NCBI GenBank assembly: GCA_051294375.1
Contig: CM119267.1
Coordinates: 18,392,992 to 18,456,991, forward strand
Length of the DNA stretch: 64,000 nt
Reading direction: 5' to 3'
Origin: Paraspadella gotoi
Lineage: Eukaryota; Animalia; Chaetognatha
Shown here: positions 1,046 to 64,000 of the stretch, piece by piece
Numbering within the stretch: the first letter of the stretch is position 1
Layout of the letters: each line of letters opens with the position of its first letter
Notes under the pieces: generated by a model
Told to the model about the DNA's origin: nothing
The model's database searches: none
The model's input: the letters and a program-made list of their open reading frames with translations, nothing else
Position numbers and translations under genes: made by a program

Positions 1046-4000
1046 TCAAAAATCTTCGGGGATCGATCGACTAGTTGAGTCTTTGTTGGAACTTATGAAG
1101 TCTTTGAGCGCAAATTCGTCACGACCTTCTCGTCTCATCGACAAATAGACCTAAAAAAATACTCGGTCCAGTTGGTATTGTTATTTTTAATATTGCAGCG
1201 TCTTTCAGCATTGAACCGCAAAGGTCGACAACAAACTCCTAATTCGTTCGAACAAATGCTTACTTGGGGTTCACCAGTTGGTGCCTTTTCGATCTTCTTC
1301 AAGACTCCGTGCAAACGACCACCCGTGAGAATTTTCGAGATGATTTCCAGATTAGGGTGATCCATTAACTTACTCATGTCCGCCAATTCCGCGGCCATCC
1401 CTTTAGTAGATCTCCTCCGGGGAATAAGCCCCTCTACGGGGAGGTGTCGAAGGTTGATCACTTTCACCTCATCCGAGTTTCCCCAGTCCACGAAAGCAAC
1501 CTGACGGAAAAAATAAACTGAAAATAGGCTTTTAAATAGGAAACAATAAAAAACTTACGATAGCCGAATCTTGATGCCCTGTCTGCGGAGGTTCGATGAT
1601 TTGACCGCGGTACCATAGACCATCTTGCTCCCAAAAAGCGGCGCAAACCATATTTCTGACGGGATTCTTCATGAACGGCCACGTATGGGCGTTAGTCTGC
1701 GAAAAAAAATTGTGCAATGTGCATGTTATAATTTATGCACGTTTATATCTTAATTATTTTTATTATTTTATTACTATTTTCTAACAATAATTTTAATGAA
1801 AAATAAATATATATTATATAAATATAATATATGTAAATAATATATAAAAATAAATGTATAAATAAATAAATATTTTTAATTAAATATGTTTAGGAATATG
1901 TCAATATCAATAAAACAAAAATAAATATTATTAATCTTAATTTATCAAATATATCACATATTTAATAAAAATAAGTTTTTAGACGTTTTCATAACATTTA
2001 AATAGAGATTCTTAGTGGGAAGTACAAGTGCATTTATTTTTTTGCTAATATTTTTATTCACATAGCGGAATCAATCAGAGAGAAGTAGAGAAAGAGAGAG
2101 ATTGGCTGATTTTTAATTAGGTCATTTGAAGCGGAGAGAATACGAGCGATTGTCAAAAACAAGAAATATATTTTCGGAACGAAAATTATATGACACGGAA
2201 GAAAAAGCAAATCAACGAATTGATCTTCCCCGGAATTCCGAGAGAGGGAGGAATGAGAGAGGGAAAGAAGAGGAGAAAGAGAGAGAGAACAAAAGACTCG
2301 CTGCAGCCCCCCCAGTGGTGCGCCTGAAGGCGTGGCACGCAACACAGTAAGAGTCAAAAAGGTGAAAAGTCATCTTGCTGAATGAAGGCCGGAGGATGAA
2401 AGTGCGGAAGGTTGGCGGGGGCTTGGGCTGTCGGAGCCTGCGGGCGACCTCTGGCGCGCGTGGCCGCCAACTGGACTTCTACGGAAGGGTCCACTACGCA
2501 GGGCTTCAATCGATCAACGGAGACGTCGTCCTCCGCGGTGCCCAAGGCGATACGGAACGTCTTGTCGCCGGGGCGGACAACTCGGAATGGGCCATCATAC
2601 GGTGGCTGCAGTGGGCCGCGATGCGCGCTCATGGCGGACAAAGACGAAACGGGAGTTTTGCAGTTGAGGCGGAACGTAGGAGGAACGTGCCCCGTGGCGG
2701 GTCCCGGGAACAGGGCGGAGGAGGGCGACGTCATTACGGAGATTGCGAAGGAATTGTGCGGTATCAGCGCCTCCAGTGGGAGGCGCCACGAAGTCACCCG
2801 GCAGAGTGAGGGTGTCGCATAAACGAGTTCTGCGACGGAGGCGTTGAGGTCGTCCTTCGGAGTTGTTTCGGAGGCCCAAGAGGACCCACGGTAACTGGTC
2901 CATCCAGTTGCTGTCTTTAAGGCGTGCGCGAAGGGCGGTTTTAAGGTCGCGGTGGATGCGTTCCACGATCCCGTTGGATTGCGGGTGAAAGGCCGTGGTG
3001 TGGATGATTTGGGTCCCAAGCAGCTCGCCGAGTTGCGACATACAGCTGAGGTGAACTGGGCACCGCGATCCGAAGTCATCCGTGCCGGGACCCCGAAACG
3101 GCTGATCCAAGATGAAAGGAGGGCGCGAAGCAAGAGTCATCGCCGACGTATCGGGAACGGGGATGACTTCCGGCCATCGTGTGAAGCGGTCGACGATGGT
3201 GAAGATATGGGCGTGGCCCCGAGACATCGGGAGCGGCCTCTACGACGTCAACATGGATTGGAAACGCTTCTCTGGCGAGGTAAGGTTTGCAGGGGCGCCG
3301 CGGTATGCCGATCGATCTTAGCCCGCTGACAAGCGTGCAGCGCGGGTCCAGGCGGCGACATCTTTGCATACAGAGGCCAGAACGTAGCGACGTGTGACGA
3401 GGCGTTTGGAAGCATTAATGCCGGGGTGTGTATAATGCCATGAACAGTGTCGAACATCTTTCGCCGCCAGGAGAAGAAGGAGACGAGTGCGCCTCTGCAC
3501 CCCAGTCGAAACGTCGCACAAAGACAGTGAGTGGCGGACCTATTGCGACGTCTTGCAGGCGCAGCCCGGTTGTCGGATTCCGAGGGATCGACGGTGTGTA
3601 AGCTCATGCATCAGTGATCCGTGTCTGGTCACCAGCAAGAGCAGAGAAGTCAACGCCGGAGGCGACAGATATGCAGATACATATGCGCGAGAGAGTATCA
3701 GCTACGACGTTCCTCTTGCCTTCGATGTGCCGAATGTCCGTCGTGAACTCGGCAATGGCGCTGAGTTGTCGGCGTTGGCGGTCGTTCCATGGGTCCTTCA
3801 CCATGGAGAGGGACGGTACGAGAGAGTTCTGGTCCGTGAAAAGGGTGAAGGGGCGCCCATAGAGGAAGTGCCGAAAATGCCGAGTCGCGAGATGGGCGCC
3901 GAGTAGTTCGCGGTCATACGCTGAACGGGACGCCTCCGATGCCGTCAACTTGCGGCTGAAAAAGGCGAGCGGACCCAGTTGCCATCGATGTTCTGTTCCA

Positions 4001-7000
4001 GGACTCCTCCAACAGCCACGTTGGAGGCGTCAACGGTGAGGGCCGTCGTTGCGCCCTCGACGGTGGGCAAGGAGTGCCGCTGATGAAAGGGCTTCCTTGG
4101 CGGCGTCAAAGGCAGCGATATTTATGTCCGACCATTGAAGGATGCCCTTCTTCTGCTTGGCGAGGTTGGAGGGGCGCAAGTACGTGCGCGGCGTGAGGGA
4201 TGAAACGATGGTAGAAGTTAATCATACCTAGAAAGCGCAACAAACCGGGAACGTCAGTGGGGCGTGGAAAGCGATGGATGGCGTCGACTTTGTCCGGGAG
4301 CGTCGTGATCCATAGCTGCGTGACGCGATGACCCAAGAAGTCGACGGAGGCTGCCCCGAAAACGCATTTGGCCTTGTTGACAACTAGGCCGTGCTCCTCT
4401 AAGCGGTCGAAGAGTAGAGCGAGGTGGCGCCGGTGTTCGTCTTTACTGGCGCTGGCGACGAGTATGTCGTCCAAGTAGACGAAGACGAAATCAAACCCGC
4501 GGCAGACGTAGTCCATAAGGCGTTGGAACGTCTGTCCGGCGTTCTTTAGTCCAAATGGCATGCGCGGAAACTCCCAAAGCCCGAAAGGTGTCGCGACGGC
4601 AGTCTTTTTAATGTCTTCCGTGCCACCGGGATCTGGTGGTAGCCCTTCACCAGATCGATTTTGGAGAAAATCGTCTTACCCGCAAGGTTGGCCGTGAAAT
4701 CTTGTAGGCGTGGAATTGGATAACGATCATCGTCTGAGGCGCAGTTGAGTCGACGGAAGTCGCCACAGGGGCGCACGCTGCCGTCCGGCTTAGGAGCGAC
4801 GTGGAGCGGCGACGCCAAGGGCTGTGGAGCGGCGCACGATGCCCGCTGCCTCCATAGCCTCGAATTCCTTTTTCGCTTGAGCCAACTTTTCGGGAGAAAG
4901 GCGGCGCGGGCGTGCGAAGACCGGTGGACCGGAAGTGACGATGTGGTGATAAACGCCGTGCTTTGGCGTAGTGCTGTCGAAGGTGGGCGTGGTCAACGCC
5001 GGACGATCGAGGAGGAGCTGCTCAAACTCGTTTGAGACGTTGGCGATGATCCGCGTAGGAACGTTGGACGACATCTGCGCGCGGATGGATTCAAAGGTAG
5101 CGGCGTCGATGAGGCGCTTGTTCCCGAGATCCACCAATAATCCGTGCTGGCGGAGAAAATCGGCTCCGAGAATCGGGCGGACGACGTCCGCAACGACGAA
5201 GCGACCGGTGAGGCGTTTGGACGTGAGCCTCAGAGTCATAGTTCGGGCGCCGTAAGAACGGATCCGCCGTCCGTCAGCGGCGTTGAGGGGTGGGGACGAC
5301 TCGGCGTTCCAACGCCGGTCGTAAGGTGAGGGCGGAAGAGGCTCACTTCCGCGCCTGTATCCACAAGAAACTCGAGTCCGGAGTCGTAGTCGTGAACAGA
5401 GAGAAGAGGCGTGCCGTTGCCGACCGTGCTCACTGCGGGCGGGCGGCCGAGGCGTTTCCCGACGCCAAAGAGCATGGTAGGCGGCAACTACGAGCGCGGG
5501 CGCCGAATTCCGCGTGATAACGGCAAAAACGCGATCGTCCGGGCCATCGGCGGCGAAATCCCTTTTAGCGGCATCGGCGCCTTTGATGCGGTGCCGGCGG
5601 TTCCCTTGATCTTTCGGTTGCCGCCTCTCCGACGGCGGGAGTCGAAAGCGGCAGCTGCGAGCAGCGGGTCCGCCGCGTCGGGAGCTGCGGTGCTGCGGGC
5701 GAGCCCGGGCTGTGCCGGTCTGTAGAGATAACGGAAATGGGCGACGGGCCGCGCTGATTCGCGTCGTTTGACGGCGGTCACCGCTTCGTCGATGTCCGTC
5801 GGGGAAAAAGAGGAGAGAAACTCTTCGTGTGCGCCGCCTGCGTAGCTGTGAACGAAGACGGCGGTCGCGATCTGATCGAGTGAAAGTGAGGCAATATCGC
5901 GCTTGATTTTCGCGGCGTAATCGTCGGCGTTTTCGCCGCGATCGCCGCCGTAGAGGAGGGATGAGGCGACTCGATGTTTTCCGGCGTGTAACGGCGTCGG
6001 ATCTCCGCGACAATCTGTTCGTAAGGTCGTTCGGACGGGCGTTCGAGCGCGACGGGCCCGAGGCGAGTCAGTTGGCGCGATGTCAACTTGGCGATGAGAT
6101 GAAAGTATTTCGTAACTGAAGAGGAAATTCGCCGAATCGCGAAGATCGCCTCGCATCGCTGTATCCAAGCGATGGGCGACTCTTCGTCCCAGTCCGGTAG
6201 AGAGACGTTGATGTGGCCGACATTCGCGTCGAATTCCGAGTCGGTTGCGTGTTCGTTAGGGTAGGACGTAGCCATTAGTCGTTGAGCGTCGAGGATCAAC
6301 AATGAAGCGGAGAGAATACGAGCGAATGTCAAAAACAAGAAATATATTTTCGGAACGAAAATTATATGACACGGAGCAAAAAGCAAATCAACGAATCTGA
6401 TCTTCCCCGAATTCCGAGAGAGGGAGGAATGAGAGAGGGAAAGAAGAGGAGAAGAGAGATAGAACAAAGACTCGCTGCATCATAATGCTGAACCAGAAAA
6501 ATGGCTAAGCCCTGGCCACCCCGATCCCGCACATCATCTTTTTTTATATTAAGAAGTTGAGATAATTTTTTAGGAGGGCATTCCAAGGGTCTGTCTTGAC
6601 TTAGTTTCCACAAAGACTATTTAAATATTAAATAACATGTGCATGCGATGTCCTTACTTTTTCCTAACATTCAGAAAATAGATTTCTGTTTACCATAAAA
6701 ATATTAATTAGCTAATACTATTATTAAATATATTATATTTTGTACATTTTTATATTAGTAATCACTTAAGAAGTTAATAATATTAATTTATATCTTAAAA
6801 AGATTCATGACAGTTTGCCATCTACAATGTCCAATTTAAAAAAAAAAAAAAAACACAAAATAAAAAAAAAACCAATAACCCACTTCCGAAAAAACCCAGA
6901 GGGCTGGGTGTTTAAAAAAAACAAAAAAAACAAATTATTGCCAACCCATATTGGCAATAATTTGTTGTTTTTTTTTTTGACTAATTGTTACCTGCATAAA

Positions 7001-10000: not shown

Positions 10001-13000
10001 AGCTATCCGAGTAAGCAATGTACCGGGCCTTAGAGCGTGACTGATAGTGATGGACTGACGTTGATCTTTGGTAGTCTTCCTGACGCCCGCGGGCAAATCT
10101 CCGTTTTTTTCTTTTTCCTTCTCCTTTCCCTTTTCCTTTTTTCGCTTTTCAGCCCTTTCCTCCTTCGATCGCGACTTTCGATGCTGGGCGGGAGAGTTTT
10201 CGGAATCCGATCGAGGCTCTGGAGACTTGGATCGACGGGGAACTGACGAAAGAAAAAGAGTAAAGCCAAAGGAACGCTAAAAATTAAATCCTTAAGAAAA
10301 AAATCTTAAAAGTATAGTGATGCGATAATAACCAAATATTGATACAATGATAACAAAAGATTAAAATCATTCATGGATGCGATGAGTCATTCATTGACGC
10401 GATGATAATCATTCATTGACACGATGATAATCATGATTTGCAACGATGATAATCANNNNNNNNNNNNNNNNNNNNNNNNNNNNNNNNNNNNNNNNNNNNN
10501 NNNNNNNNNNNNNNNNNNNNNNNNNNNNNNNNNNNNNNNNNNNNNNNNNNNNNNNNNNNNNNNNNNNNNNNNNNNNNNNNNNNNNNNNNNNNNNNNNNNN
10601 NNNNNNNNNNNNNNNNNNNNNNNNNNNNNNNNNNNNNNNNNNNNNNNNNNNNNNNNNNNNNNNNNNNNNNNNNNNNNNNNNNNNNNNNNNNNNNNNNNNN
10701 NNNNNNNNNNNNNNNNNNNNNNNNNNNNNNNNNNNNNNNNNNNNNNNNNNNNNNNNNNNNAACGCTAAAAATTAAATCCTTAAGAAAAAAATCTTAAAAG
10801 TATAGTGATGCGATAATAACCAAATATTGATACAATGATAACAAAAGATTAAAATCATTCATGGATGCGATGAGTCATTCATTGACGCGATGATAATCAT
10901 TCATTGACACGATGATAATCATTCATTGACACGATGATAATCATTCATTGACACGATGATAATCATTCATTGACACGATGATAATCATTCATTGACACGA
11001 TGATAATCATTCATTGACACGATGATAATCATTCATTGACACGATGATAATCATTCATTGACACGATGATAATCATTCATTGACACGATGATAATCATTC
11101 ATTGACACGATGATAGTCATTCATTGACACGATGATAGTCATTCATCGTAAATAAACATGAGTGTTTAAGTGAGAGAGAGAAAGAAAGAGAGAAAAAGAG
11201 AAAAAAAGTAAAAGAGAAGCTGGACAACCGCTGGACAGCCGCTGCAGAGCGGTCTCGTTTTTAGACGAATCAAAAGAGGCAGCGATGAAAAAAAAGAGCG
11301 ACATATATTTAAAATGTAATAGTAATTTATAATAGTTTTTATATGAAATATGTGATGATGATGAGAAGCTTTGGTTACACACTTTTACAATTTCCAATTA
11401 TAAAAAAGGGTGACGACGACGGCACAAAGAAGCAATTCTAAACAATTATATCGCCAAGACGGGCTTCAGCCCGTCTGGCGAGATAAAACCTTCTTCCACG
11501 TCGGCGACAAATCGTTTCAGGTCGTCGCCGCCCTCCATCGCCGCCTTTACGGCCTCGTCTACTCGGTTCACGCGACGAGATCGCAACTGGACGATGTGTG
11601 GGTCGCCGGGCTGTCTCGGCGAAGAAACGATCGTTCCGTCAAAAATACTCTCCGGCAAAAGGGTCAACTGTAAGTTGAAAATTTGTATATATTTTTACTA
11701 CTCAGTTCAATTGATAAGGTCCGCCAAAGTAAGAATTGCTCTCGCTCACGTCGTTAATGCGTTCTAACGCCCTTTTTCCCAATTCTAGATTCGTTTCGTC
11801 GTAGTCGCAAATGTCGGCGCACGGCAGCGAGCATTTAATCGCCAACGGCGTCATCACTAAGAAATCGTCCAAAAGCTTTTTAACGTTCCAAATGCTAGTC
11901 TTCTGCCGATTTCCGTAGTCGACGAACTCGACCTCGACAGTTCGTTTGCCAATGATCTTTAAAAAAATGTAAAACGATAAAACACTTCCATCAAACGCAG
12001 AAGACGAGGAAGCAGAACTTTTCAGCCCGTAAAGAAAAAGGCCTAACCTCTTTGACGAGGGCACGATACCAAAATTCGTCCGCGTTAAACTTTGCGGCGC
12101 AAACCATGCCGGGTTGAGGACAGAAAAGCGTGTAGAATTCGGTAAAGTCCGAACTGTACACTTGCTGCAGCTGCCTCATCATGTCTTGCAAATGAGTGAT
12201 TTTACTAAAAAAAAATGAAGAGAATCGATATTTTCTGTTGAGAGGGTGAGAACAGGGAAGGCGAGAGTCATTACGATTAACGTTTACTTGGACGGGCTGA
12301 ATTGAACGTAAAACTCTTTAGGCGATTCAATGTGTGAAACATAAGTCTCGACAGTGACGTTGATTGGTGGGACTTCTGAACGCAGGTAGCGCCGCGAGTC
12401 GTGGATTGGGACAATGCTCTCCGGAGCTGCTCAAGAGAGGAGGGTCAGGATTAAGAGGCTTAATGCGCGGAAAACAACTTTTTTTTTAAATAACCCAGCA
12501 CTGACCCGAAAGATTGGAAGTAAAAACGGCGAATTCTAGAAATACAAGAGCGTCACGAACCGAGAGCGGTGCTTCCAAATTGATATCCGTCGAGTGGGCT
12601 TGATGCAGGTCGACCTAAAATTAAAAATAATTAGTTAGAAATTAGAGCTTGGATTGGATTTAAATCAAATCGACGAACCAAGTGATACCATACCTGCCAT
12701 ATCCCATCGATTTTTTCTCTGACAGACATAAGAAGTCGCTTGTCTCTAACCATATCGTGAAACTTGTTCAATGCTTCGTGACTGAAAAAGACAATTGCAA
12801 AAACTCGTAACAATGACGGTTGATTGTGAATCCCTTACTAAACTCTTACCTAAAAGCGGAAGCTCTCTTTGGCGGAGATATTCCGTGCAATCCACAGCAG
12901 AAAGCCTTTTCGGGAATGTTTTTAAACTTGCTAGGAAGTTCGCGGAACCAGGTGATGGGAATTCTTTCCACATTACCAAAGTCAATAAATAAGGCTTCCG

Positions 13001-34592: not shown

Positions 34593-37500
34593 TTAAAGCC
34601 GTTCATCTCCAGGGCGCAGCTCGGGTTCTTCCGGAAAGGAAAGGTCTTGCAGGTCCTCCTTCGAAAGATCTCCTTCGGTCGTAACCTGATGGGTCAACAA
34701 ATTAAAGTACTATGAAATTTGTACAACCTATATAAAAATTATCCATTCATTTAATAAATAAGCTATCTTGCCCCTGACTTTGGACAGGCTTTGGTGGTTT
34801 AAGGCCTCCATCACTCTTACAAGATAATGACATAGCAGGACCCTGCAAGCTTTCAATCAAGACTGTCACAGTCTCGTTTATTCACTCCCAGAGTTCCTGG
34901 CTTCCCTATTAAATAACGATTATAAATATATGGGGGTCTCTTACTTGATCCGTTTCGGTGGCCATGAATGAATCGTCTTCTCCCTCCCCAGTTGTATTAG
35001 CGGCGGGATGGTTCAATGACGTTTCGGCCGTCTTCTTTGCGTCGTGCTCTATCAGTTTGACGCCCTCCTCCTCGTCCGCTGGTGCCGCTAGTATTAAAAT
35101 AAGAATATAGCTAAAACTATATGCAATAGGACGTAATTTTTTCCCCTTTTCTTTCAGTGCAATATGTAAGACTTCCTCTTCTTTCACCCTCACCTTCTCC
35201 CTTAGCGTTGACGCCCTTTTCGACGTCCATTTTTCCGCCGGTGGCTTTTCGCCTTAAAACCAAGGCTATGAATACGGCGACGGCGACGATGATGACGATG
35301 GCAATGGAAACGGCCCAAACCGTCGATGAAATATTGCTCAATGGGAAAGCGGAAGACTCGTCTGTGGTAGAACATCAGTTAATCAGGACATGGTCTAATA
35401 TTACTTATTTAAAAAGAGACGAGAGGGCCTTACCGTCTTCATCTCGCGGCTCGATCAGACTCAACTCGATCGCGTGAGTCTCGACTCCAATCCCGTTCTC
35501 CGCCACGCACTTGTACACGCCGGCATGAGCGCGGGACGCGTTCTTCACGTGATAAACGGCGGTGGTGGCGGAGACGCCTTCAGCTGGCGCGTCCAGGGCG
35601 GAGCCGTTTTCCCGAGATAAATTTAGGTGGGGAGAAAAGAACCAAGCGTAAGAGGGGCTGGGGTTCCCATGGAACGGGCACGCGAGCAGCAAATCGTTTC
35701 CGAGACTAATAAAAGTTAAGACGAGTTCGAAAGGTCAAAAGTTTTAAGTAATAAAACACAACATCGTTTCAATTTACCCAAACATAACGCGATTCGGGAC
35801 GACCTCCCGACGCGAGAGAAAACTGACGTGGACAGGAATTTCTGCAATAGGGGATTCGACTCCGGTCCAAGGATTTTTGGCCATGCAAGATATGGCCTTG
35901 TTGTTCATTTCCGCCACGGCGACGATGGCGCTTGAATTGACGATTTTTTCATCTGATACGACGAAGAATAAAGTCAATATGAGAAAGCAAAAGAGAGAAA
36001 AAGAAAGAAGCAACGCCGGTTAACCTTGAAAAGAATAAGTAATAACTGATTGGGGACGAGAGTTGACGGCCACGCACTCAACCCCAAAAGTCTGACCAGC
36101 TTCAACACGAATCTCTTCCTTGTTCGGTCGAACCGAGTCCGGTCCATGAGCCACGGGAATTTGAAATTCTTCGCTGAGATTCGCTGAGATAAGAATCAAA
36201 CATCGATTTTATAGTTGAAAATATTATACATATAACGAAATGGCTTTTTTCTCCTCACCCGCCTCGCATCGTACGACGGCGTCGGTCAACGCCGGCAGAG
36301 ACGAGGTGACAAGGGTAAATGCGACGACTTTCCCCTCACGCGTCAAGTTGGAAAGTAGACCGTCTGATTCTGAGTCGACGGTGATTTCCGTCGCGGGATT
36401 TCCTAAATCGTCAACGCCACAAGAAACTCGACGAGAATCGTCTCCCATGACAATATATTTGGGTGCGCCCTCAAGCTAATCAAAAAATAAATGAAAAAAA
36501 TTATTATTTTAATAGAAATATTAATCCCGGGGAATAACAGAAGACAACGCTGCCAAACAGATTCTCACTTTCAAAATCCTAGGCGCCCAAGTGACGCTGG
36601 CGAGATTAGATTCGCAGACGAGTCCGAGAGAAGGAAGTTGGCAAGCGACTCGAGTCGCGTTGTCGTCATTTCTCGAGAAAACCGGCTGAGATAAAAGACA
36701 AAAGTCGAATTTTGCGTCTCGAATAATAAATCATCAAGAAAAATCTAAAAAGACCTCGACAGCGGAGCCAATCAAAAAGTCGCCGTCGTCCGAGATTTTC
36801 GACCGCTGTTCCTCGTCTCCTTTTTTCATGAGGAAAAAACTTGGCAACCAACCGGCAGAGGGACCGAATTTGGCGACGCGACAGGAGGCGTTCGTAGGGG
36901 CGCCTTCCTCTACCGTCGTTAGCAGAGGGCATTCGAAAGAGGATCCGTTAAAGACGGAAACGGAAACGTCATTTCCGCCTGGAATCCACAAGAAAGAGAG
37001 GTACGTATAAAAGGTCAATTTTTTTTTTCTAACCGCAGTCTACGAAACCGAACTCGAGACAAGACCTTGATCGTCGCAGAAGTAATCTCCGGCTTGTTTC
37101 TCGGTGGCGGAGGCAAATGTATAAACGAATGTTTTTCCATTGTCCTCCACAGTGATGCTTCAAAAAAGAGAGATTAAATTGAAACTTAATTCGAAGAAAG
37201 TGATTCCTAGGATTTATTCGTCAGCAGTTTACGTTGGTCAATGGACAGGCCTACTTTAATTCTTTGGGCGCATCGGGTCTTCTTTTCTCCCCCTCGGCAA
37301 ACTGAACCGATTCAACGTTAGACTCGTAGTGTTTGAATTTCAAAAGTGGTGAAAAGGCTTTGGTATCCTTGAAAATCGTGGGGCAAGTTAACCGTAGCGG
37401 TTCACCTTGTGGTAAATATTGAAAAGTCAAGGGGTAAAAACCATACTAATTTGTTTCATTCCACAGGCAATAACCGTAATAACCCTCTAACACTTTCACG

Positions 37501-47000: not shown

Positions 47001-50000
47001 TTTTCCTCTGTCGCTTTTTTCGACTCGATTCTGCGCTTTCCTCTAAAGTAACTTCGCTCTGCGATTCGTGCGGTCGACGCGTCGTCGTCTTACGAGAGAT
47101 ATGCGGCTGCGTCCGGGTTTTCTCAGGCTGTAGCTGCGGCGGCGGCTGCAACGGAGGAGAGTAATTCGGGGCCACGTTGATTTCGGCCATTATTCGTGGG
47201 AGCGTATCTCGCGAATCTTTGGACGACGACTTCAAGGCCCCAAAGATTCCGCGTTTTTTTCTTCTTTCCTCTTCCTCGGATTTCATTTTTTCCTGCAGGT
47301 GCTGAATTAGCTTGCTGTGCTGTTGAATTTGGCTCTGCATACGATATTTTTCCGTTCCGTGCGTCATATTTTCTTTCTCCATCTTCGTCTCGAGGTTCAT
47401 GAGTTGCAAATGAAGTTGTTCTTTTTCTTCATTAGTAGAATCCAACTGCTGTTTAAGTGCGGCGTTGATTTCTTGCGATTGCTTAAATTGGGTCAACATC
47501 GCGGACATTTCCTCTTTGAGCGAGTTGTTTTCTTCCTCGTTGGTGTCGAGATATTTCGACTTAATCTTTATTTTACTCTCTAACATGGCGTTTTGCTTAG
47601 TCACCTCGGCCAATTCATCGTGCACTGTGGCCAACTCGTGACGTTTAATTGTTAGTTGAGCCTGGAGAGCGTCGGTTTCTTGGCGATAACCGTTAAAAAC
47701 TGTGTCTAGCTTCTCCCCGGTCTGTTTCTTAAGATTTTCCGCCGTTTGGCGCATTCTCTGTTCACATGTCAATTTGGCTTCTAACTCTAAAACCTGCTTG
47801 TGATTTTCTTCGTATTTCTGCTTGTACTCTTTCACCAAATTTTCGTTTTCTTTCCCAGCATCTTCCTTTTCGCTCAAAAGCTTTTCCAAAGCCGTCAGGT
47901 GTTCTTCCTGCTCGGTGCACATGGCTTCCAACAGCTTTACCTTCTGCGTTTTGGCCGTTATGTCCTCCTTTTCCTCCTTGAACGAACTCAATTCGCCCTC
48001 GAGTCGGTCGCGGATGATTTTGCTCGATTCCATTTTTCGCTCCAATTCTCTAACCTTAAGAGTCAGAGAATCTTTTTCCTTCGTCAGCGATCCCAGACGA
48101 TTCAATTGACTCGTCGCCAACTTAAGCTTGGTATCGACCTCGGCTTTTTGAGTGAGAATCGACTCGTAGTCAAACTTGAGGCTCTTCGCGGATTGAACGT
48201 CGTCGGCGTCCCTTTTCATCCGCTCTTTCAAATCCTTTTCCGTATGTTGAGCCGTTTCCAACTTGGCCTTGGCGACAACGGCGTCGCTTTTGGCCGTCCG
48301 CAGCTCCTCCCACAAACTGGAATTCTCCTTCTTTAGCTTGTCCTTCTCCTCGTCCTTTTCGTTTTTCAACTCCTCCAGCTCCTTCTTCGTCTTTTCCAGC
48401 TCCCTCTCTCTGGCGTTCTTGATCGCCTCCAGCACCGTCTTGTCTCGCTGAAGCTCGGCCACGGTTCGCTCCTCCGCCGAAGCTTTTGTCATCAACTCCT
48501 TCCTCGAGAGGCTGCGTCGGTTGGCCTCGGCGAGCTTTTGCTCCAAAATCGAGATTTGCTCTTCGAGCTCGGGGCATTTCTTCCGCGAATCGTTCTTATC
48601 CTTCTCCGCTCTCTTCCGGTCCTCGTCGGCATACTTGATTGACTCGCGCATGCGTTCTATCTTTCGCTCAAAGGTCTTGATCTCGACTTCGTGGAGCCGT
48701 TCGCTCTCTTTTCGCTCCCGCTCCAGTCGAGCGAGATTCATCTTCATCGTCTCTGCCTCTTGTTTAAGAATCAAGTTTTGTTCCTTGAGAGAATCCTTGA
48801 CAAATTCAGGGTCGATGCATTCGAGAAGGGACTGGCGGTTAGAGTTGTCGCGAAGACGTTCGATGTCGTCGCGAGCCGATTGCAGCGCGTCGTCCTTTTC
48901 GTCGACCAAGATTTGGAACTGGCATAGATCCTAGGAAGGCTTGCATTCAGGACATTTTCTTTTTCCGGGGCAAATTAGAAAGAACCTACCTTTTCAACTT
49001 CTCCCTTTTGCTTAACGACGGAATTCAATTCCTCCTTCAATTCTGTTATCTTCTTTTTCAGATCATCAATCTCACATTCCGTCCGGACGAGAGGTTCCAA
49101 ATCTAAAACACTCCTACGACTTTTCTTGAGGGTCTGCGAAAAAAGAAATGGATTTTGCAGTTAGGTACATAGGGGTACTAACTTACTATTTGAAATAGAT
49201 CAGATTTACGATTTACCTTTTTCTCATTTTCTCCGTTTGAATATTCATTCACTTTGCGCAACTTTGATTCTACTTCAATCAACGTCTTTTCACGATCTAG
49301 TTTCACATTCTCCAATTCTTTTTTCACGGCCCAATAATTCTACAAAAAATGTAAGAAAAATTCTTATTGGGTTAAATTTTAGCATTTGCAAGCAAATCAT
49401 TTTTTCTTTTAATTTAATTTAATGTTGTGGCGGTATATTCACACCGCCTTACGTCCACCATCCTTCAGCCAAATCCATTGGCTCAGAGGGGGAACACACC
49501 ATCCCAGGCGTAGTGTTCCATCCACAGTCCTAACGACTTCCCTCTGCGTTGGCAAAGCGAGACCGTCCTAGGGTAACCGCGCCAGTGACTGGAGGCGTCA
49601 CTGAGGGTCGGAAGCCCCCAAAGCCAACAGTGAGATGCCCCATCCCAATGGGCATCACAGGCAACCCGGCTGTTGCCATAATGTCATGTTTATTTAAAGT
49701 AGTTTGTACGTTCGTCGTTGTCATAGACGAAAATCGTATCAAATTTACATTAAGATTATCGTCTTATATGGAAAATTTAAAATCTAGCTAGCATTGCGCT
49801 TAGGATATATAGTATATAAACTATATATAGGATATATTATATACCTTTTGAGCGTTATCCCTCTCGCGAATGATTTCTTCGAGTACGGGCCACATATCCT
49901 CCAATTCGCGACGCGCTTGCAGAGTTTTCGTATCGACAAAGGCCTCACACGCCCGAGCATTCTCCGCAAGCATCTCCTGCGCTTCTCTTTCACGATCTTT

Positions 50001-52074
50001 GATTCTTTGACGCAGGTTCAGAAGATCGGCTTGAGAAGCGGCAAGATCCACCATCAGATTGTTTCGTTCCTCCTCGATACTAAAGGAATGTTTAGTAGGC
50101 TAGTTAAAACCCGTTACATATGTTGTTGCACGACTTCCATTTTCTCTCAATTTACCGAAAAAGTCGGACGCTTCTTTCCTCTAGAGCTTCTCGAACTTTA
50201 TCCAACTCAGAGATCAAGTTTTTATTGTGCGCTGCTAATTCGGAATTTCGAAGAGTTGCTTCGCGCAATTCCCGGGAACGGTTTGTCGAATCCACTGCCA
50301 AAGAACGCCTAGAAAAGATAAAAATGCTAAGTCGGAGGCTTTATTCGCGAACGACACAAAATGGCACCGTAACAGCAAAAATTCCGACCTGGAGCTAGAA
50401 TCCTGCGTGGTGTGGGTAAACCCCACAAAGGCGAGGTTTTTTCCGTCGAATCCGTTCTTTCCCATGCGCTTGAGAGCGGTCGGGTCCGGCGGGCGACGAG
50501 ACTGTGCCGAGGCCATTGTCTCGTTGAGGTCAAAGTCGTCGAAGTTGGAGGTGTCGTCGGGCGATGTCAACGTCGGCACGAAAGGAGGCACCGAGAATCG
50601 GATGGTGGGAAAGTCGACGCCGCGGAAAAACGGGTGCGATTTTATTTCGTTGTATCCTGAAACAATTAGAAACGGGAGTCCATACACGGCTTTTTTGGTT
50701 AACAATTACAGAAGGCTTCAAATAAAAACTCACTCAATCTGTCATTGGCGTCTGTAAGCAGTCGCTTAATGAGATCGATAGCTTCAATGGAGACCGAGCC
50801 GTCAGCAGGAAACTTGAGAGCTTTCTTGTGATTTGATATGTCGGCCACCTTCTTAGCGGGATCAAGCGTTCCGGATGAAAAGGGTAAGGATCCGTACAGC
50901 ATTTCGTACAGGACAACGCCTATAAAATTTTGTGTAGGCCGTAGAGCAATTAAGATTGAGTTAATGAAAAATATTCTTAAAACTAACCGAGAGACCACCA
51001 ATCGCACTCAGCTCCGTAAGCAGCTTTAACGCTTTTCGGGTAGTTGTTGTTAGCGTTGATTGTTTGCATCACTTCGGGGCTGACGTAGTCCAAAGTGCCT
51101 ACAGGCATCGGGCAACCGCGGACTTTCCCATCTTGGCCGAGTCGAGCGGCTGATCCAAAATCGGCGAGCTTCAAGTGTCCCGTCCTATCGATGAGTATGT
51201 TTTCGGGTTTTACGTCGCGGTGGACGTACCCCAGTTGATGAACGCTGTTGATGGCTTCAACCTGAAAAGAAAGAATTAGGCAAAAGAGGTTACATTTAGT
51301 AGGTAAAAATTGACTTCCTTTTATCACTCGGTTACCATCTCGGCCACGTAAAACTTGGCGACGCTTTCCTCCAGCACATCGTTGTGTCGTGAGAGCAACT
51401 GCAGCAGGTCGCCGCCCCCGTGAAATTCCATCACCAAATAGAGATCCTCGGAGTCTTGAAAGGCGTATTGCAAACCCGTGATCCAATCAGAGCGAGCGCC
51501 TGAGAATAGCAAGATAATATGTATTAGCTGACAGACAAAGATGGGATCTCCCGCTATCGGAGCCCGTTGTCGCTCACCCGCGGCCAATATGTCCCTTTCC
51601 TCCTCGAAAAACGCGCAGGTGGATTGGCTGCGAATCTCTGACTTTCTGAGAATTTTCAATGCGAAAACATCGTCGGAAGATTTTTCTTTGACGACCTTGA
51701 CTTCGCCGAAGTGACCGCGCCCGATCGTGCGGATGACTTCAAAATCGTTGAGAGAAGGGCGCAAGGACCGAACCGCGCGGACGGCAGGGCCGCAACGGTT
51801 GGCGAATTCCATGAGGGACGGGTCGTCGTTCTGACAAAATTTAGAAAAGACATGTCAATTATTTTTGCAATTATTTTTGACTGATAAATGTCGAATAGTC
51901 AATTCGATTTTCACGAACCTTTTTTCCGATGGCTTCATCGTAGAATATCTCGAAAAGATCGAGGAGGGCATTGTTGGACAGAAGTGGCTTTGCTTTGGCA
52001 TCTGAGACAGATCCGCCTCGACCATTAAGGATCTGCGCCAATCTGGCGCCTCGGGAAAGGATAGATTCTGACAT
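44004..52074 (-). CDS. CIT: Citron Rho-interacting kinase (Sticky): kinase, coiled coil, C1, PH and CNH domains
   Basis: [19 protein letters not shown]; [30 protein letters not shown]; [12 protein letters not shown]; [19 protein letters not shown]; long coiled coil; C1 domain; PH domain with TTCWP motif; CNH domain [19 protein letters not shown]. Confidence 0.92.
49422..49684 (+). mobile_element. ~260-nt GC-rich multi-hairpin insert in a Citron intron (retrozyme-like)
   Basis: Complementary ends ATGTTGTGGC/GCCATAATGT; stems GGCGGT/ACCGCC, CAGAGGG/CCCTCTG, GGAACAC/GTGTTCC, GATGCCC/GGGCATC, GGCAAC/GTTGCC; contains a twister fold. Single copy in the window, so mobility is inferred. Confidence 0.55.
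49548..49628 (+). ncRNA. Twister ribozyme, type P5
   Basis: GUUGGC-AAA-GCGA-GA-CCG-UCCUAGGG-UAA-CCGC-GCC-AGUGAC..GUCACU-G-AGGG-U-CGG-AA-GC-CCCC-AAA-GCCAAC. Core nucleotides present; T1 CCG:CGG; two terminal A-C mismatches. Predicted cut U49574/A49575. Confidence 0.82.
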
Positions 52075-52238: not shown

Positions 52239-53720
52239 TCACCTTCCCGCTTCCGTTTCCATAAAGTCACCACTATCGCTTTTATTGAGCGATTTCAAAA
52301 TGTTTTCCATGATTTTTTTAAAAGCGTCCGTCGCGGGGGACGCAGAGTCAAGAAACGACCTCCCCTCGTCACAGCTTTGACCCACGCGAGGATCCAAGGG
52401 AAGTTGGCCCAGCAGGTCGCATTGCATGTCTTCGCACAATTGAGCCGCACCGCCTGTCCAATTCAATTATTATTGAATGTCTACTTGAATGTGTAACAAA
52501 TACAAAAGCAAAAGAGTGAAAAGGAAAAATGGGTTTACCAGATGTCGGAGGAAATATTCGTGATTCGTGACTGCATTTTGGACAGATAAATCCACTCATA
52601 TTCTCGATGACTCCGATAATTGGCAAACCGACTTTGCGACAAAAGTTAATTTCCTTTCGAACGTCCAACAAAGATAGCTGGAGTTTTCAATAAAAAATAT
52701 TCAACATTTTAACCTTGTTCGATAGTATTCTTTTTGGTTTCGTTGTGTTTGAGATTAGCGTAATTTGTTTTGTTGCGACAACGATTTTATTTGTTTTAAA
52801 AAACAGACATGTTTCGACTATTTCTAGTCTTATGAAGATTATGAAGATTCGAAATAGAGTCGAAACAAATAAAATCGTTGTTGCAACAAAACAAATTTCG
52901 CTAAACATTTGAACAATATTGGTTGTACCAATTTCATAGAAGTAGAGAAAGCAAAACTAACCCTTTTAATCCCAATGTTTCTCTACGGAAGCTCGTCTCA
53001 AATTTTACCTCTTGCGGCGTAGTGACGATAACGGCGCCGTCGATTCCAGCTGCGCTCAGATATTGAACGATGGAGAGATGTTCGTCTGAGGTTCCTGGGG
53101 GAGTGTCGATAACTAAGCATTCCAACTCGCCCCAGTCGACGTCCCGGAGAAATTGCTTGATGAGGCCGTTCTTCTTAGGACCGCGCCAAATGACAGCGTC
53201 GTCAGGACTAGAAAGCAAAAATCCCACCGACATGACGGAGAGATTGTCGTCGACTGCGACCGGCGACCATCCCGATCCGCTCTGGTGCACCTGCTCCCCC
53301 AAAACGCCCATCACTCGTGGGACGGACGGCCCGCAGATGTCGATGTCAAGCAAGCCGAATTGTTTATCTTCGTCGCCCGCAGCCAAGTAGCGCGCGAGAT
53401 GAGCCGCCACTGTGCTTTTTCCTACGCCTCCTTTGCCCGAAAGGACTATAACCTTGTGCTTGACATCGGCGAGTTTTTCTAAAAATCGTGAAATGAGTAA
53501 TAGTAGTAGTTACTGAGTAAATAATAAAATGCGCCAATAAATATATATGAAACAAACCTTTAATGACCAGAATATCGGGATCAGGCGCTCGCGGCATCCC
53601 AGAAGAGCATATTTTTTGATTCGGGCATCCGGCACAGGGAGCGGCTTTACCCGCTAGATCACTTTGGGTTCCAGGGCAGGATTCGGGCGCTCCTTCGGGG
53701 ATATCACCCGTCTCGGACAT
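52239..53720 (-). CDS. NUBP1: Cytosolic Fe-S cluster assembly factor NUBP1 (Nbp35)
   Basis: N-terminal [22 protein letters not shown]; [12 protein letters not shown]; [10 protein letters not shown]; [16 protein letters not shown]; [12 protein letters not shown]; [11 protein letters not shown]. Confidence 0.97.
52755..52904. repeat. Foldback / MITE-like inverted repeat in a NUBP1 intron
   Basis: TTAGCGTAATTTGTTTTGTTGCGACAACGATTTTATTTGTTT against AAACAAATAAAATCGTTGTTGCAACAAAACAAATTTCGCTAA, plus an inner arm TGTTTCGACT../..AGTCGAAACA. Confidence 0.8.
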
Positions 53721-55460: not shown

Positions 55461-58400
55461 TCATTTTGTCTTTTGAGAGGCGGTCCCGATGTTAGTATTG
55501 TTGGCCTTGGCGGCAAACCGCAATGAGTTGACCGTCTCGTTGGCGTGATCAAGACGAGGGGAAATATTGACGAACATCAGCGTCTTCGAACTTCCAACAA
55601 AGTTGTTTTGAAGAAGATAAGTCAGTTTAGATTCCCTGTGAGAAGAGAATGAAAAATTGATGAGAATATATCATTAATTGTTATAGTACCTCAATTTGAT
55701 AGTCGTCCCACCTAAACGGAATGTGCTTCGAGTTTTTCTTAATAGCTTCAATAACGTCGCCCAAAACCTTCAGACTCGTATTGATTTTAAAAGCTTCTTT
55801 GGCTTGCATCCCTGTGATGGTTCGAGGAAAAACAATGACACTTAACGATGAATAGAGAATAAAACGATCGATGGGGTTACCTGTCGATCCGGATTCTTTG
55901 ATCCGTTCTGATCCTGCGAGGTCTACGAGATCAATAGATCCAAGGAGGGTTTCTTTTGTGCGTTGGTTCTAACAAAACAAATTTAAAGGAATACAATCAT
56001 CGATTCATCGCTCTTACTATTTCTCTTCTCTTTACATGTGAATTCTTTTCTGAAACACTCACATGCGACTCGATCTTGATATTGCATATAAAATGTGAGC
56101 GAGAGCTTCGCTCGTTGCATTGGGTAGCCGCGCGTTTCCGGTTATGATGCGCCTTGGCCATCAGTTGGCTGATGTCAGAGGGTGAATGGACGCTTTTGAC
56201 GGTTAAATTAGTGACGTGAACCTGGAGAGTTAAGAAAGTCGAAAAAAAATGCACAATATGATTGAATTAACTAAGTCAGTTATAATCTCTAATGACCTCT
56301 TTGGAGCCCTCCTTAACCAGCTTGATCTCGTGTTTCGGGGCCGCATCGGGTTTGCCGTTGTAGAGCAAATCGTTGACCTGTTCGTTGTAAATTTCTAGCA
56401 TCGAAGCTTGGAAAATGAAGGACCATCTTTACAAAAAGAATTTGATAAGGTCATTAAAAACTTCTCCGTTCAACATTGATGAGAAAGAGACACGAACTCA
56501 CCCTTTAACTTCCATCTTTTCGGCAGTATCAAATATCTGCCGAACCGAGCGAGGTATCATGCCCATCGATTCGTCGTCGAAATCATCTGGTCCCTCCATG
56601 GTGAAGGTCTTGCCGGACCCGGTCTGGCCGTACGCGAAAACACAGATGCTGAAAATACCAAGTTTCGTTTAAATCATTCACAATTTCATGGCAGATTTGA
56701 AAATATTTGGCATAATTCGAAACCTATAGCCGTCGAGGGCGGATTGTACTAATTGAGATAGTTCTTCGAAGACCTTCTCCTGAGAGGCTTTATCATTAAA
56801 GACCATGTCGAACTTAAAAGTCACGGGTGGAGTTTTGGTGTTGGAGTCGTTGACTAAAATCTTTAAAGCGAACATGAATAAAAATTAATGATTCACTTCA
56901 TCTCGTACGTTCGGTCAATTCGCGATTCTTGTCTGAAAATTCGTATGAACTGTTCAACTACACAAAACATTACCTTACAGTCGTCCTCATCATCGAAGGA
57001 AATATGGCTAGAGTCTTCGTGGCCGTCTTTAAGCTCTTTAGGAAGAAAGGGGCGCATTCGACAGAACACTCGAATGTTGCCCTTCAATTCCTATTGGTAG
57101 AAAACATTTGAATTGGAATCAAGGACAGTCTTGTAATCTTACTAATGTCAAAAACCTGAATGGTGTTGTGCAACTTGCGGCGTTCCAACTCATACCAATC
57201 GCCCTTCTTGATGAGACGTTCGATTTCGGCCTCGCATTCGACCAACCTCCGATCACGATCTTTTATGTCACCGCGGAGGCGCTGATTTTCACCGGCGTTG
57301 TTGCCACAATCGAGCTTTAGACTCTCGATCTATTCAGGAAACAAAATACTAACAAACCATTTACGGGGAAATTTTCAAGTAAGTTATACAGTATGTACCA
57401 ACCTCAGAATCCAATTTGCGAATTTGAGATTTTTGACGTTCCACCGTTGTTTCCAAAGTATCCAAATCATCATTTAAATTATTGACTTTGTTTTTTAACT
57501 TTTTGCATTCTCTTTCTTTGTCGTCCAATTCTTCTTGCTTCGCATTCAACTGGTTCTGGAAAATAAAGACAAAAAATAATTTTTCCCAGGGAGGAAAAAG
57601 TTAAAAGAAGCTCAAATTGTTTCTGACCTTGAACTTTTCCTTCTGTTTTTCCGATTCCAATTGATTGTCCCTCTGATCTCGGCGAGAATTCATTAGAGCC
57701 CGCTGGGATTCTTCTAATGATTCGCTTTGTGCGGACAGCTTTTCTGATAGTTGTTCTTTCTGGATAAGACAATTATCAAATTATTAAAAATCAACAAGTT
57801 ATGGTGGACAAAAATCCACCAACCGTTCATCAGCGGCCATTGGTGCAGAAGGCAAGTCATTCGCCTCCCAACCTAAAGGTCCGGGGTTCTAGCCCGTTGG
57901 TCGCCTAGCAGTTAAGAGGGACGGGGCGCTTAACCCGCCTGTAACACAGTGTTACAGCCTGAAACGAAGCTCAGGGACTGCTTATATTGAACGGTTTTGT
58001 CACTAACTCATAATAATTATTACTGTCTCTTCAACGTGTAAAGAGAAGAAATTCTCAAAAAAAAATTTAATTCAACTCCTGAATTTTTTTTAGATGACTT
58101 TGTAGAACTAAATACGCACTTGTTCTCTAAAACATCGAAGATCATTGTCCTTTTCACCAAGTTGTGTTTTAAGTGATTCAATAGCATCTAAAAGTTTTTG
58201 TTCGGAAGCTAAAAAAAAGTAAAACACTTTTAATGTTAAATTCAACCTTAATGCCGCGATTTCGCTCAAAAGTCGCAAAAATCATAAGAAAAAAATACCA
58301 GGAATAGAACGTTTGTTGTTGAGTGCTGATCTAGAGGTCGCCAAAGTTCCCCGTGCTGGGGGACGGGACTGAACATCTGAAGTAGATTTTTCCCATTGTA

Positions 58401-62688: not shown

Positions 62689-64000
<1,312 letters not shown>

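Follow-up and report, generated by a model that had tools for sequence, protein, structure and literature searches.

A dispersed 258-nt intronic element with a type-P5 twister fold and a self-complementary P1: a candidate retrozyme-like family in an animal genome

Is the short, structured insert in a kinase gene intron of this window (the whole 64,000-nt stretch of DNA analysed here) a mobile RNA element, and how could the ribozyme that it appears to carry take part in its spread? The insert had been proposed, from the letters of this stretch, to be an integrated monomer of a twister-based retrozyme or a viroid-like circular RNA. The host gene lies on the minus strand and encodes kinase, C1 and CNH domains (Pfam), from which it was read as Citron/MRCK-type. 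The intron is real: one contig of sequencing run X9 is spliced from 49339 to 49845, and the CT..AC ends place it on the minus strand. The GC-rich island claimed within this AT-rich intron was also confirmed, with 52–60% GC in the 100-nt bins inside the insert versus 29–34% in the flanking intron. The two features are as follows.

49340–49844, minus strand: host intron of the Citron/MRCK-type kinase gene, placed by the splice joint and the Pfam domains
49425–49682, plus strand: body of the element (family 1), 258 nt, with no coding role seen, delimited by the loose ends of other copies

The ribozyme strand is the plus strand and is therefore antisense to the host gene, an orientation that the original prediction had missed. 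Because the twister is antisense and lies within a spliced intron, the host pre-mRNA is out of reach of its cleavage. An AT-rich, near-palindromic hairpin is found at the donor end of the intron (49794–49857), outside the element; its match to mir-392 is weak (22 bits against a cut-off of 62).

Contigs were compared from four of 16 sequencing runs (X8–X11), which come from four studies and are not among the six possible sources of the window. X9 and X10 are presumed to be RNA, and X9 contains spliced contigs. The insert or part of it was present in 12 of the 16 runs, from five studies, and 473 contigs of X9 and 104 of X8 were aligned to the stretch. At least 17 X9 contigs showed unlike sequence before 49425 (among the 18 of 131 loose ends listed), and unlike sequence was also found in at least 12 behind 49680 and at least 16 behind 49682, with a flank agreement of 0.46–0.49. 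Further copies with other flanks, ending at 49426, 49681 and 49684, were found in X10 and X11. The unlike flanks beyond shared ends indicate a dispersed element whose 5′ end is sharp and whose 3′ end is constant to within 2–4 nt. Family 1 has at least 17 loci sharing the 5′ end in one run, is represented in runs of three other studies too, and is a non-coding, structured, multi-copy unit within the 150–450 nt range (258 nt; fold z-score, −2.6). Thus, the proposal of an integrated monomer holds in so far as contig ends and the pairing check place a type-P5 twister in an integrated, protein-free, multi-copy unit. Its viroid-like part is not supported, since no ribozyme was detected on the opposite strand and the family consists of genomic DNA. 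In X9 and X8 the summed depth of contigs was far higher over the element than over the flanks, a value that measures neither copy number nor expression; the depth in X8 is uneven owing to C>T/G>A conversion, and the 40 of 139 variants listed are all conversion changes in the flank. One 213-nt contig of X8 (49469–49681) is unconverted within this converted DNA run, and strong structure may have blocked its conversion.

The two ATGTT copies suggested as a duplication do occur (49422 and 49686), yet their positions do not coincide with the element ends at 49425 and 49680–49682 seen in other copies, and ATGTT was rejected as a target duplication for this reason. A direct repeat of 6 nt fits the ends better.

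49420–49425, plus strand: left copy of the 6-nt direct repeat, a candidate target duplication or microhomology
49679–49684, plus strand: right copy of the same repeat

Part of this repeat overlaps letters common to other family 1 copies, so that a target duplication and the element end are inseparable without an empty site. The copy at this locus is single, and the 64-kb window contains no second copy of family 1. No head-to-tail or circular joint was seen among the 15 of 16 joints listed, a weak observation as contigs show presence only.

The fold of the ribozyme was checked pair by pair, and its parts are placed as follows.

49548–49628, plus strand: type-P5 twister fold with P3, with a partial Rfam twister-P1 match
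49548–49553 with 49623–49628, plus strand: P5
49577–49580 with 49557–49560, plus strand: P2
49583–49589 with 49597–49603, plus strand: P3
49604–49607 with 49616–49619, plus strand: P4
49609–49611 with 49563–49565, plus strand: pseudoknot T1
49581–49582 with 49614–49615, plus strand: pseudoknot T2
49574–49575, plus strand: predicted scissile bond U/A, from the position in the Rfam alignment

The twister with P3 and a short P1, as originally predicted, is borne out by these pairings (P5, 6/6; P3, 7/7; P2, 3/4; P4, 3/4), and both pseudoknots are fully Watson-Crick paired (T1, 3/3; T2, 2/2). The conserved core is in place, namely U/AA at 49574–49576, GA at 49561–49562, the U..AAGC of L4 and the GC of T2. 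The fold is closed by the six-pair P5, in which the motif termini lie, and ends located in P5 define the type P5 twister (PMC5408937, in the part available). A gapped core pattern matched once in the window and never in 100 shuffled windows. The same kind of pattern gave 3 viral and 28 metagenome matches, none of which was similar to the element by BLAST at E 0.1 and in which the stems were absent by eye; the exact 20-letter core was found in no viral and no prokaryote genome searched.

Rfam covariance models see this fold only in part. A 2-kb scan around the insert missed the twister, and narrowed stretches gave partial matches to twister-P1 (RF03160) at 15.2, 17.6 and 22.9 bits against a gathering threshold of 67.2, the best of them (E 0.002) on a 57-nt stretch chosen by hand. 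No match to RF02684 (Twister-P5) was listed for family 1. No hammerhead core was detected in 49000–50200 on either strand, nor any hammerhead by Rfam, and the opposite strand of the insert gave no ribozyme by Rfam or the pairing check. We consider it very probable that the fold belongs to a true twister lineage.

Two A-C oppositions, C49577-A49560 in P2 and A49604-C49619 in P4, had been suspected to be inactivating mutations. This suspicion is weakened, since both recur in other copies and are not private decay. A copy in X10 with another 3′ flank has one difference in 192 letters over 49490–49681, one X11 contig has none over 49572–49626, and a second X11 contig with its own flank has none over 49597–49684. 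The near-identical X10 copy comes from a run labelled as another organism, in which the host gene is uncovered, as a mixed sample or horizontal transfer would give. Across more than 2600 natural twister candidates tested, cleavage was generally robust to imperfections in P1, P2 and P4; an A-C pair in P4 lowered it modestly, and the pseudoknots and catalytic bases were sensitive (PMC11662667, in the passages available). Mismatches in helices were frequently tolerated in a mutational scan as well (PMC5113685, likewise in part). The parts reported to be sensitive are intact in family 1. With pseudoknot energy excluded, a fold compatible with the ribozyme is 9 kcal/mol less stable than the minimum free energy fold, and therefore this copy may also be damped by misfolding.

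The window carries two further insert families with type-P5 twisters, both missed by the original prediction, and no BLAST similarity was detected among the three families.

34710–34909, minus strand: family 2 copy A, 200 nt, with an intact-core type-P5 twister, a 6-nt palindromic P1 and a predicted cut at 34801/34800, found through Rfam Twister-P5
58655–58853, plus strand: family 2 copy B, 199 nt, 94% alike with different flanks, found by repeat comparison
62809–63078, plus strand: family 3, about 270 nt, with ends inferred from one copy, found by descriptor search and a weak Rfam match
62949–63012, plus strand: type-P5 twister of family 3 with P3, a 6-nt palindromic P1 and a predicted cut at 62964/62965, found by the descriptor

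In total, four copies of three twister families lie in 64 kb. In the Rfam scan of the whole window, copy A of family 2 matched Twister-P5 (RF02684) at 34773–34815 on the minus strand with 25.8 bits (E 0.32; gathering threshold, 37.6), and family 3 reached 16.3 bits (E 0.21) against the same threshold. Both copies of family 2 have the same 4-nt direct repeat at both ends and no inverted ends. Copy B has lost 3 nt in the conserved GA region and is likely to be inactive, judging from this loss. Copy A apparently lies in sense within an intron at 34944–34686, predicted by eye, a position that would suit a ribozyme weak as a monomer. In family 3, a Pol III-type A box (62870) and B box (62914) precede the twister, and this box match was reached by 0 of 300 shuffles; Rfam gave no tRNA match in this promoter region. 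The letters of T1 differ among the three families and yet stay paired (CGG/CCG, CCA/UGG and UCC/GGA). Families 2 and 3 are identical on the 3′ strand of P2 (62949–62955, and 34816–34810 on the minus strand), and a C-A opposition or a bulge occurs in P2 of all three.

The short P1 of family 1 had been seen in the original prediction, but not its self-complementarity.

49566–49573, plus strand: minimal P1, an 8-nt self-complementary segment with two pairs and a palindromic tetraloop in the monomer and eight pairs between copies

The P1 region of all three families is a self-complementary segment of 6–8 nt, in three different sequences. As monomers these segments have 1–2 pairs and a palindromic tetraloop, and no stable fold was obtained for two linkers tested, while the homoduplexes were calculated at −11.0 kcal/mol for family 1 and −9.1 kcal/mol. 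The Rfam alignment gives families 2 and 3 a three-pair P1 with a loop of zero length, and thus one strand cannot form that P1. With a control descriptor that accepted linkers of 3–30 nt and did not require a palindrome, four core matches were obtained in the window, three of them with P5, and the linker was self-complementary in all three. The same descriptor gave 22 matches with P5 in 100 shuffled windows, none with a self-complementary linker. The background self-complementarity within the elements was 38/905 for 6-mers and 18/897 for 8-mers. The palindrome came to notice in family 1, which leaves families 2 and 3 as the only independent tests of it. The fourth match in the window, near 56056–56153, has no P5 and a non-palindromic linker and was rejected as chance.

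Known twisters provided a further comparison. Scans of phage and prokaryote sequences, covering at least 272 loci, gave 134 matches (115 distinct) that passed a filter on P2, T1 and T2. The P1 region was 14–30 nt in 113 of the 115 type-P5 matches listed, and the other two (8 nt) were not self-complementary; the patterns of this control fix the letters of T1 and P4, a few matches may be chance, and the set is without eukaryotes. Two or three type-P5 matches lie within about 1 kb in five of these contigs (L064, L082, L104, L235 and L236). In a MAFFT alignment with 38 phage and prokaryote twisters, two of the three from the window were misaligned.

Hammerheads offer precedents for such a P1. According to the portions available of the respective papers, the stem of axolotl retrozyme hammerheads is either a single pair capped by a palindromic tetraloop or two pairs capped by a tetraloop, and these ribozymes are weak as monomers and efficient in dimeric constructs (PMC7229834), and Penelope hammerheads have a very short palindromic stem-loop that is thought to force dimer cleavage (PMC6765202). 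On the other hand, P1 is described as dispensable for twister cleavage in passages of PMC5408937 and PMC11662667, so that a monomer might cut without a partner. From this analysis we give cleavage that would depend on a dimer an even chance.

The remaining structural claims on family 1 were examined over the whole insert.

49425–49431, plus strand: 5′ arm of the terminal stem, which pairs with 49675–49681
49675–49681, plus strand: 3′ arm of the terminal stem, which pairs with 49425–49431
49458–49645, plus strand: four CCAUCC motifs (49458, 49499, 49518 and 49640) and one AUCC (49473), for the most part single-stranded in the predicted fold

At least six hairpins had been claimed, and the minimum free energy fold of the insert has seven hairpin loops. 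Folding of both polarities gave z-scores of −2.6 for the plus and −2.8 for the minus strand, and the fold is therefore only moderately beyond chance and not strand-specific. The complementary termini are confirmed in that the two arms can form seven pairs including one G-U; this pairing competes with local hairpins, and circular folds are less stable than the linear fold and add no support. The four CCAUCC motifs are among 17 plus-strand occurrences in 64 kb, and could possibly serve as a protein-binding signal; the motif at 49499 is retained in two diverged variants of the family. The absence of a tRNA promoter was upheld, as family 1 contains no tRNA gene and its matches to the A and B boxes were equalled by 16 of 300 shuffles. 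The A- and B-box consensus used for scoring families 1 and 3 is one that we assume. The Pol III promoter was not significant in families 1 and 2, a sigma-70 promoter scan gave nothing beyond chance (this promoter type is irrelevant to an animal), and family 1 has neither a poly(A) nor a repeat tail.

Elsewhere in the window, an LTR retrotransposon occupies 2127–6479, with 180-nt direct repeats that are 96% alike and have TG...CA ends; its matches to RT, RNase H and DUF7041 are spread over several reading frames. At 10273–11146 a tandem array of 22-nt units adjoins a gap of Ns, and a 183-nt stretch is repeated on either side of the gap, a duplication that is probably an assembly artefact of one locus. 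A match to an H/ACA snoRNA (SNORA40) at 52813–52927 is weak (28.9 bits versus 51) and probably due to chance. A search for homologues of NUBP1 returned hits from named animals at 68–79% identity, none of them a close relative, and the lineage is taken here simply as animal.

We slightly favor the reading that family 1 is a retrozyme-like, non-autonomous element that has spread through RNA and whose twister is predicted to cut as a dimer. Tandem source copies elsewhere would be transcribed, and the palindromic P1 segments of two ribozymes would pair and thereby complete both active sites, a lone copy cutting weakly. Two cuts would free a unit-length RNA, which a host ligase would probably circularize; such circularization is described for retrozymes (PMC7761336, in the part available). 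The reverse transcriptase of an autonomous non-LTR element would then copy the unit in trans into A/T-rich DNA, the unit presumably having been opened near the terminal stem. No autonomous partner element was found. The copy in this intron is a probable dead end, since it is antisense to the host transcript and has one ribozyme and no clear promoter. Besides the dispensable P1, the single family 1 copy in the window, the missing head-to-tail joint and the energy gap noted above, two further points count against the favored reading: a fixed 5′ end with a 3′ end varying by 2–4 nt would be expected from a linear template no less than from a circle, and the Rfam scores are below the gathering thresholds in all three families. 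We put a circular intermediate in the spread of family 1 at somewhat below even.

The same ends fit a SINE-like element copied from linear RNA, in which the minimal twister would cut as a monomer, or be active in source copies alone, and what reads as a palindrome would be a shrunken P1 hairpin. The sharp 5′ and slightly variable 3′ end in A/T-rich DNA, the short TA-containing direct repeats, the Pol III boxes of family 3 and the partially available reports of a dispensable P1 (PMC5408937; PMC11662667) all agree with it. However, an efficient cut in the middle of the element would split the template, a dispensable P1 leaves full self-complementarity in three sequences unaccounted for, and family 1 lacks a significant Pol III promoter as well as a poly(A) or repeat tail; we regard this explanation as unlikely, at about one chance in four. 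Another proposal is that an infectious, viroid-like circular RNA left a copy in the genome. The size, the branched fold on both strands and the near-identical X10 copy, from a run carrying another organism's label, would suit this, as would the twisters known in viroid-like circles (bioRxiv 10.1101/2022.07.19.500677, in part). The opposite strand is without a ribozyme by Rfam and the pairing check, the many loci with identical ends present in DNA runs point to repeated insertion by transposition, and three unrelated families share one design, which makes this origin very improbable.

Two explanations involve DNA-borne or LTR-type ends. A Gypsy element might have moved the insert as the solo LTR of a TRIM or LTR-type retrozyme. 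In keeping with this, 49426–49678 begins with TG, ends with CA and has an exact 6-nt repeat on either side, plant LTR retrozymes carry the ribozyme inside the LTR (PMC6765202, in the passages available), and 2127–6479 is occupied by an LTR retrotransposon containing RT and RNase H. This origin is improbable, as 28 of the 29 X9 right-end contigs listed near the end match 2–4 letters past CA, and families 2 and 3 do not have TG...CA ends. A MITE moved as DNA, with the ribozyme a leftover, could also account for the fixed ends, the TA-rich flanks and the imperfect inverted repeat of 7 nt. The end pairing, however, relies on G-U pairs and bulges rather than on DNA repeats that match, inverted ends are absent from family 2, and selection on RNA is implied by the intact cores and the covariation of the pseudoknots in three families; we consider a MITE hardly credible.

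Metazoan non-LTR retrozymes are among the nearest known systems. In the portions available of PMC7229834 (Cervera and de la Pena 2020) and the review PMC7761336 they are, like family 1, protein-free structured units of 150–450 nt with one self-cleaving ribozyme and many copies, and the ribozymes of amphibian retrozymes have a stem of 1–2 pairs with a (palindromic) tetraloop and work better as dimers (PMC7229834), a feature paralleled by the P1 of family 1. Non-LTR retrozymes carry a type I hammerhead, whereas family 1 has a type-P5 twister fold; they form tandem arrays, whereas the copies of family 1 seen are single with fixed ends; they have less than 50% GC, whereas the bins of family 1 have 52–60%; and they yield abundant unit-length circular RNA, whereas family 1 is known here from contigs alone. 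Family 1 would work like a non-LTR retrozyme yet falls outside this group in ribozyme class and GC content. It shares with the type-P5 twister of RF02684 the ends in P5, together with P2, P4, T1, T2, the core and an optional P3. The twisters of families 1–3 differ from RF02684 in their sub-threshold scores and in lying inside a mobile animal repeat, and differ from phage and prokaryote type-P5 twisters in having a self-complementary P1 of 6–8 nt instead of a P1 region of 14–30 nt.

The SINE-like hammerhead repeats of schistosomes (PMC6765202, in part) have a promoter followed by a ribozyme in a short repeat, as in family 3, but schistosome and Penelope-like systems use a hammerhead while families 1–3 use a twister, for which no protein-coding partner was identified. 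The twisters of the RTE element Perere-3 in Schistosoma resemble family 1 in being part of an animal retroelement and in a reduced or variable P1, and they cut at the 5′ boundary of the element ahead of the RT gene (PMC8501958, in the part available). In family 1, the predicted cut is 150 nt inside a non-coding element with no adjoining RT frame and the topology is type P5.

Twisters are known in RNA viruses (PMC13725137, in part), and the passages available of the review PMC5408937 mention twister dimers only as a crystal artefact. A full-text search, over titles and the openings of abstracts in mostly non-subscription literature, found no description of a twister-based non-autonomous animal element or of a natural dimeric twister, and the part available of a further review (PMC6154101) held no relevant passage. 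The supplement of PMC11662667, as described in its available text, lists about 1000 new twister candidates from many animals and may contain such forms. In this surveyed literature, retrozymes have so far been defined by hammerheads, and the sole role shown for twisters in animal genomes is the trimming of the 5′ ends of RTE retrotransposons.

If the favored reading is correct, a twister-based, protein-free mobile family would be a second role, and the retrozyme design would be independent of the ribozyme class. We tentatively extend this to a whole class of twister retrozymes, in which unrelated elements of 200–270 nt would be activated as dimers through a P1 formed only between two RNAs, an extension that we hold at rather less than even. 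As the forms described here lie below the Rfam thresholds, other animals may harbor them without their having been picked up by standard annotation. A twister that in nature depends on a partner strand would constitute a new regulatory form for this ribozyme. The twister would then have converged on the palindrome switch of retrozyme and Penelope hammerheads, by which monomers and circles would be spared and concatemers cut.
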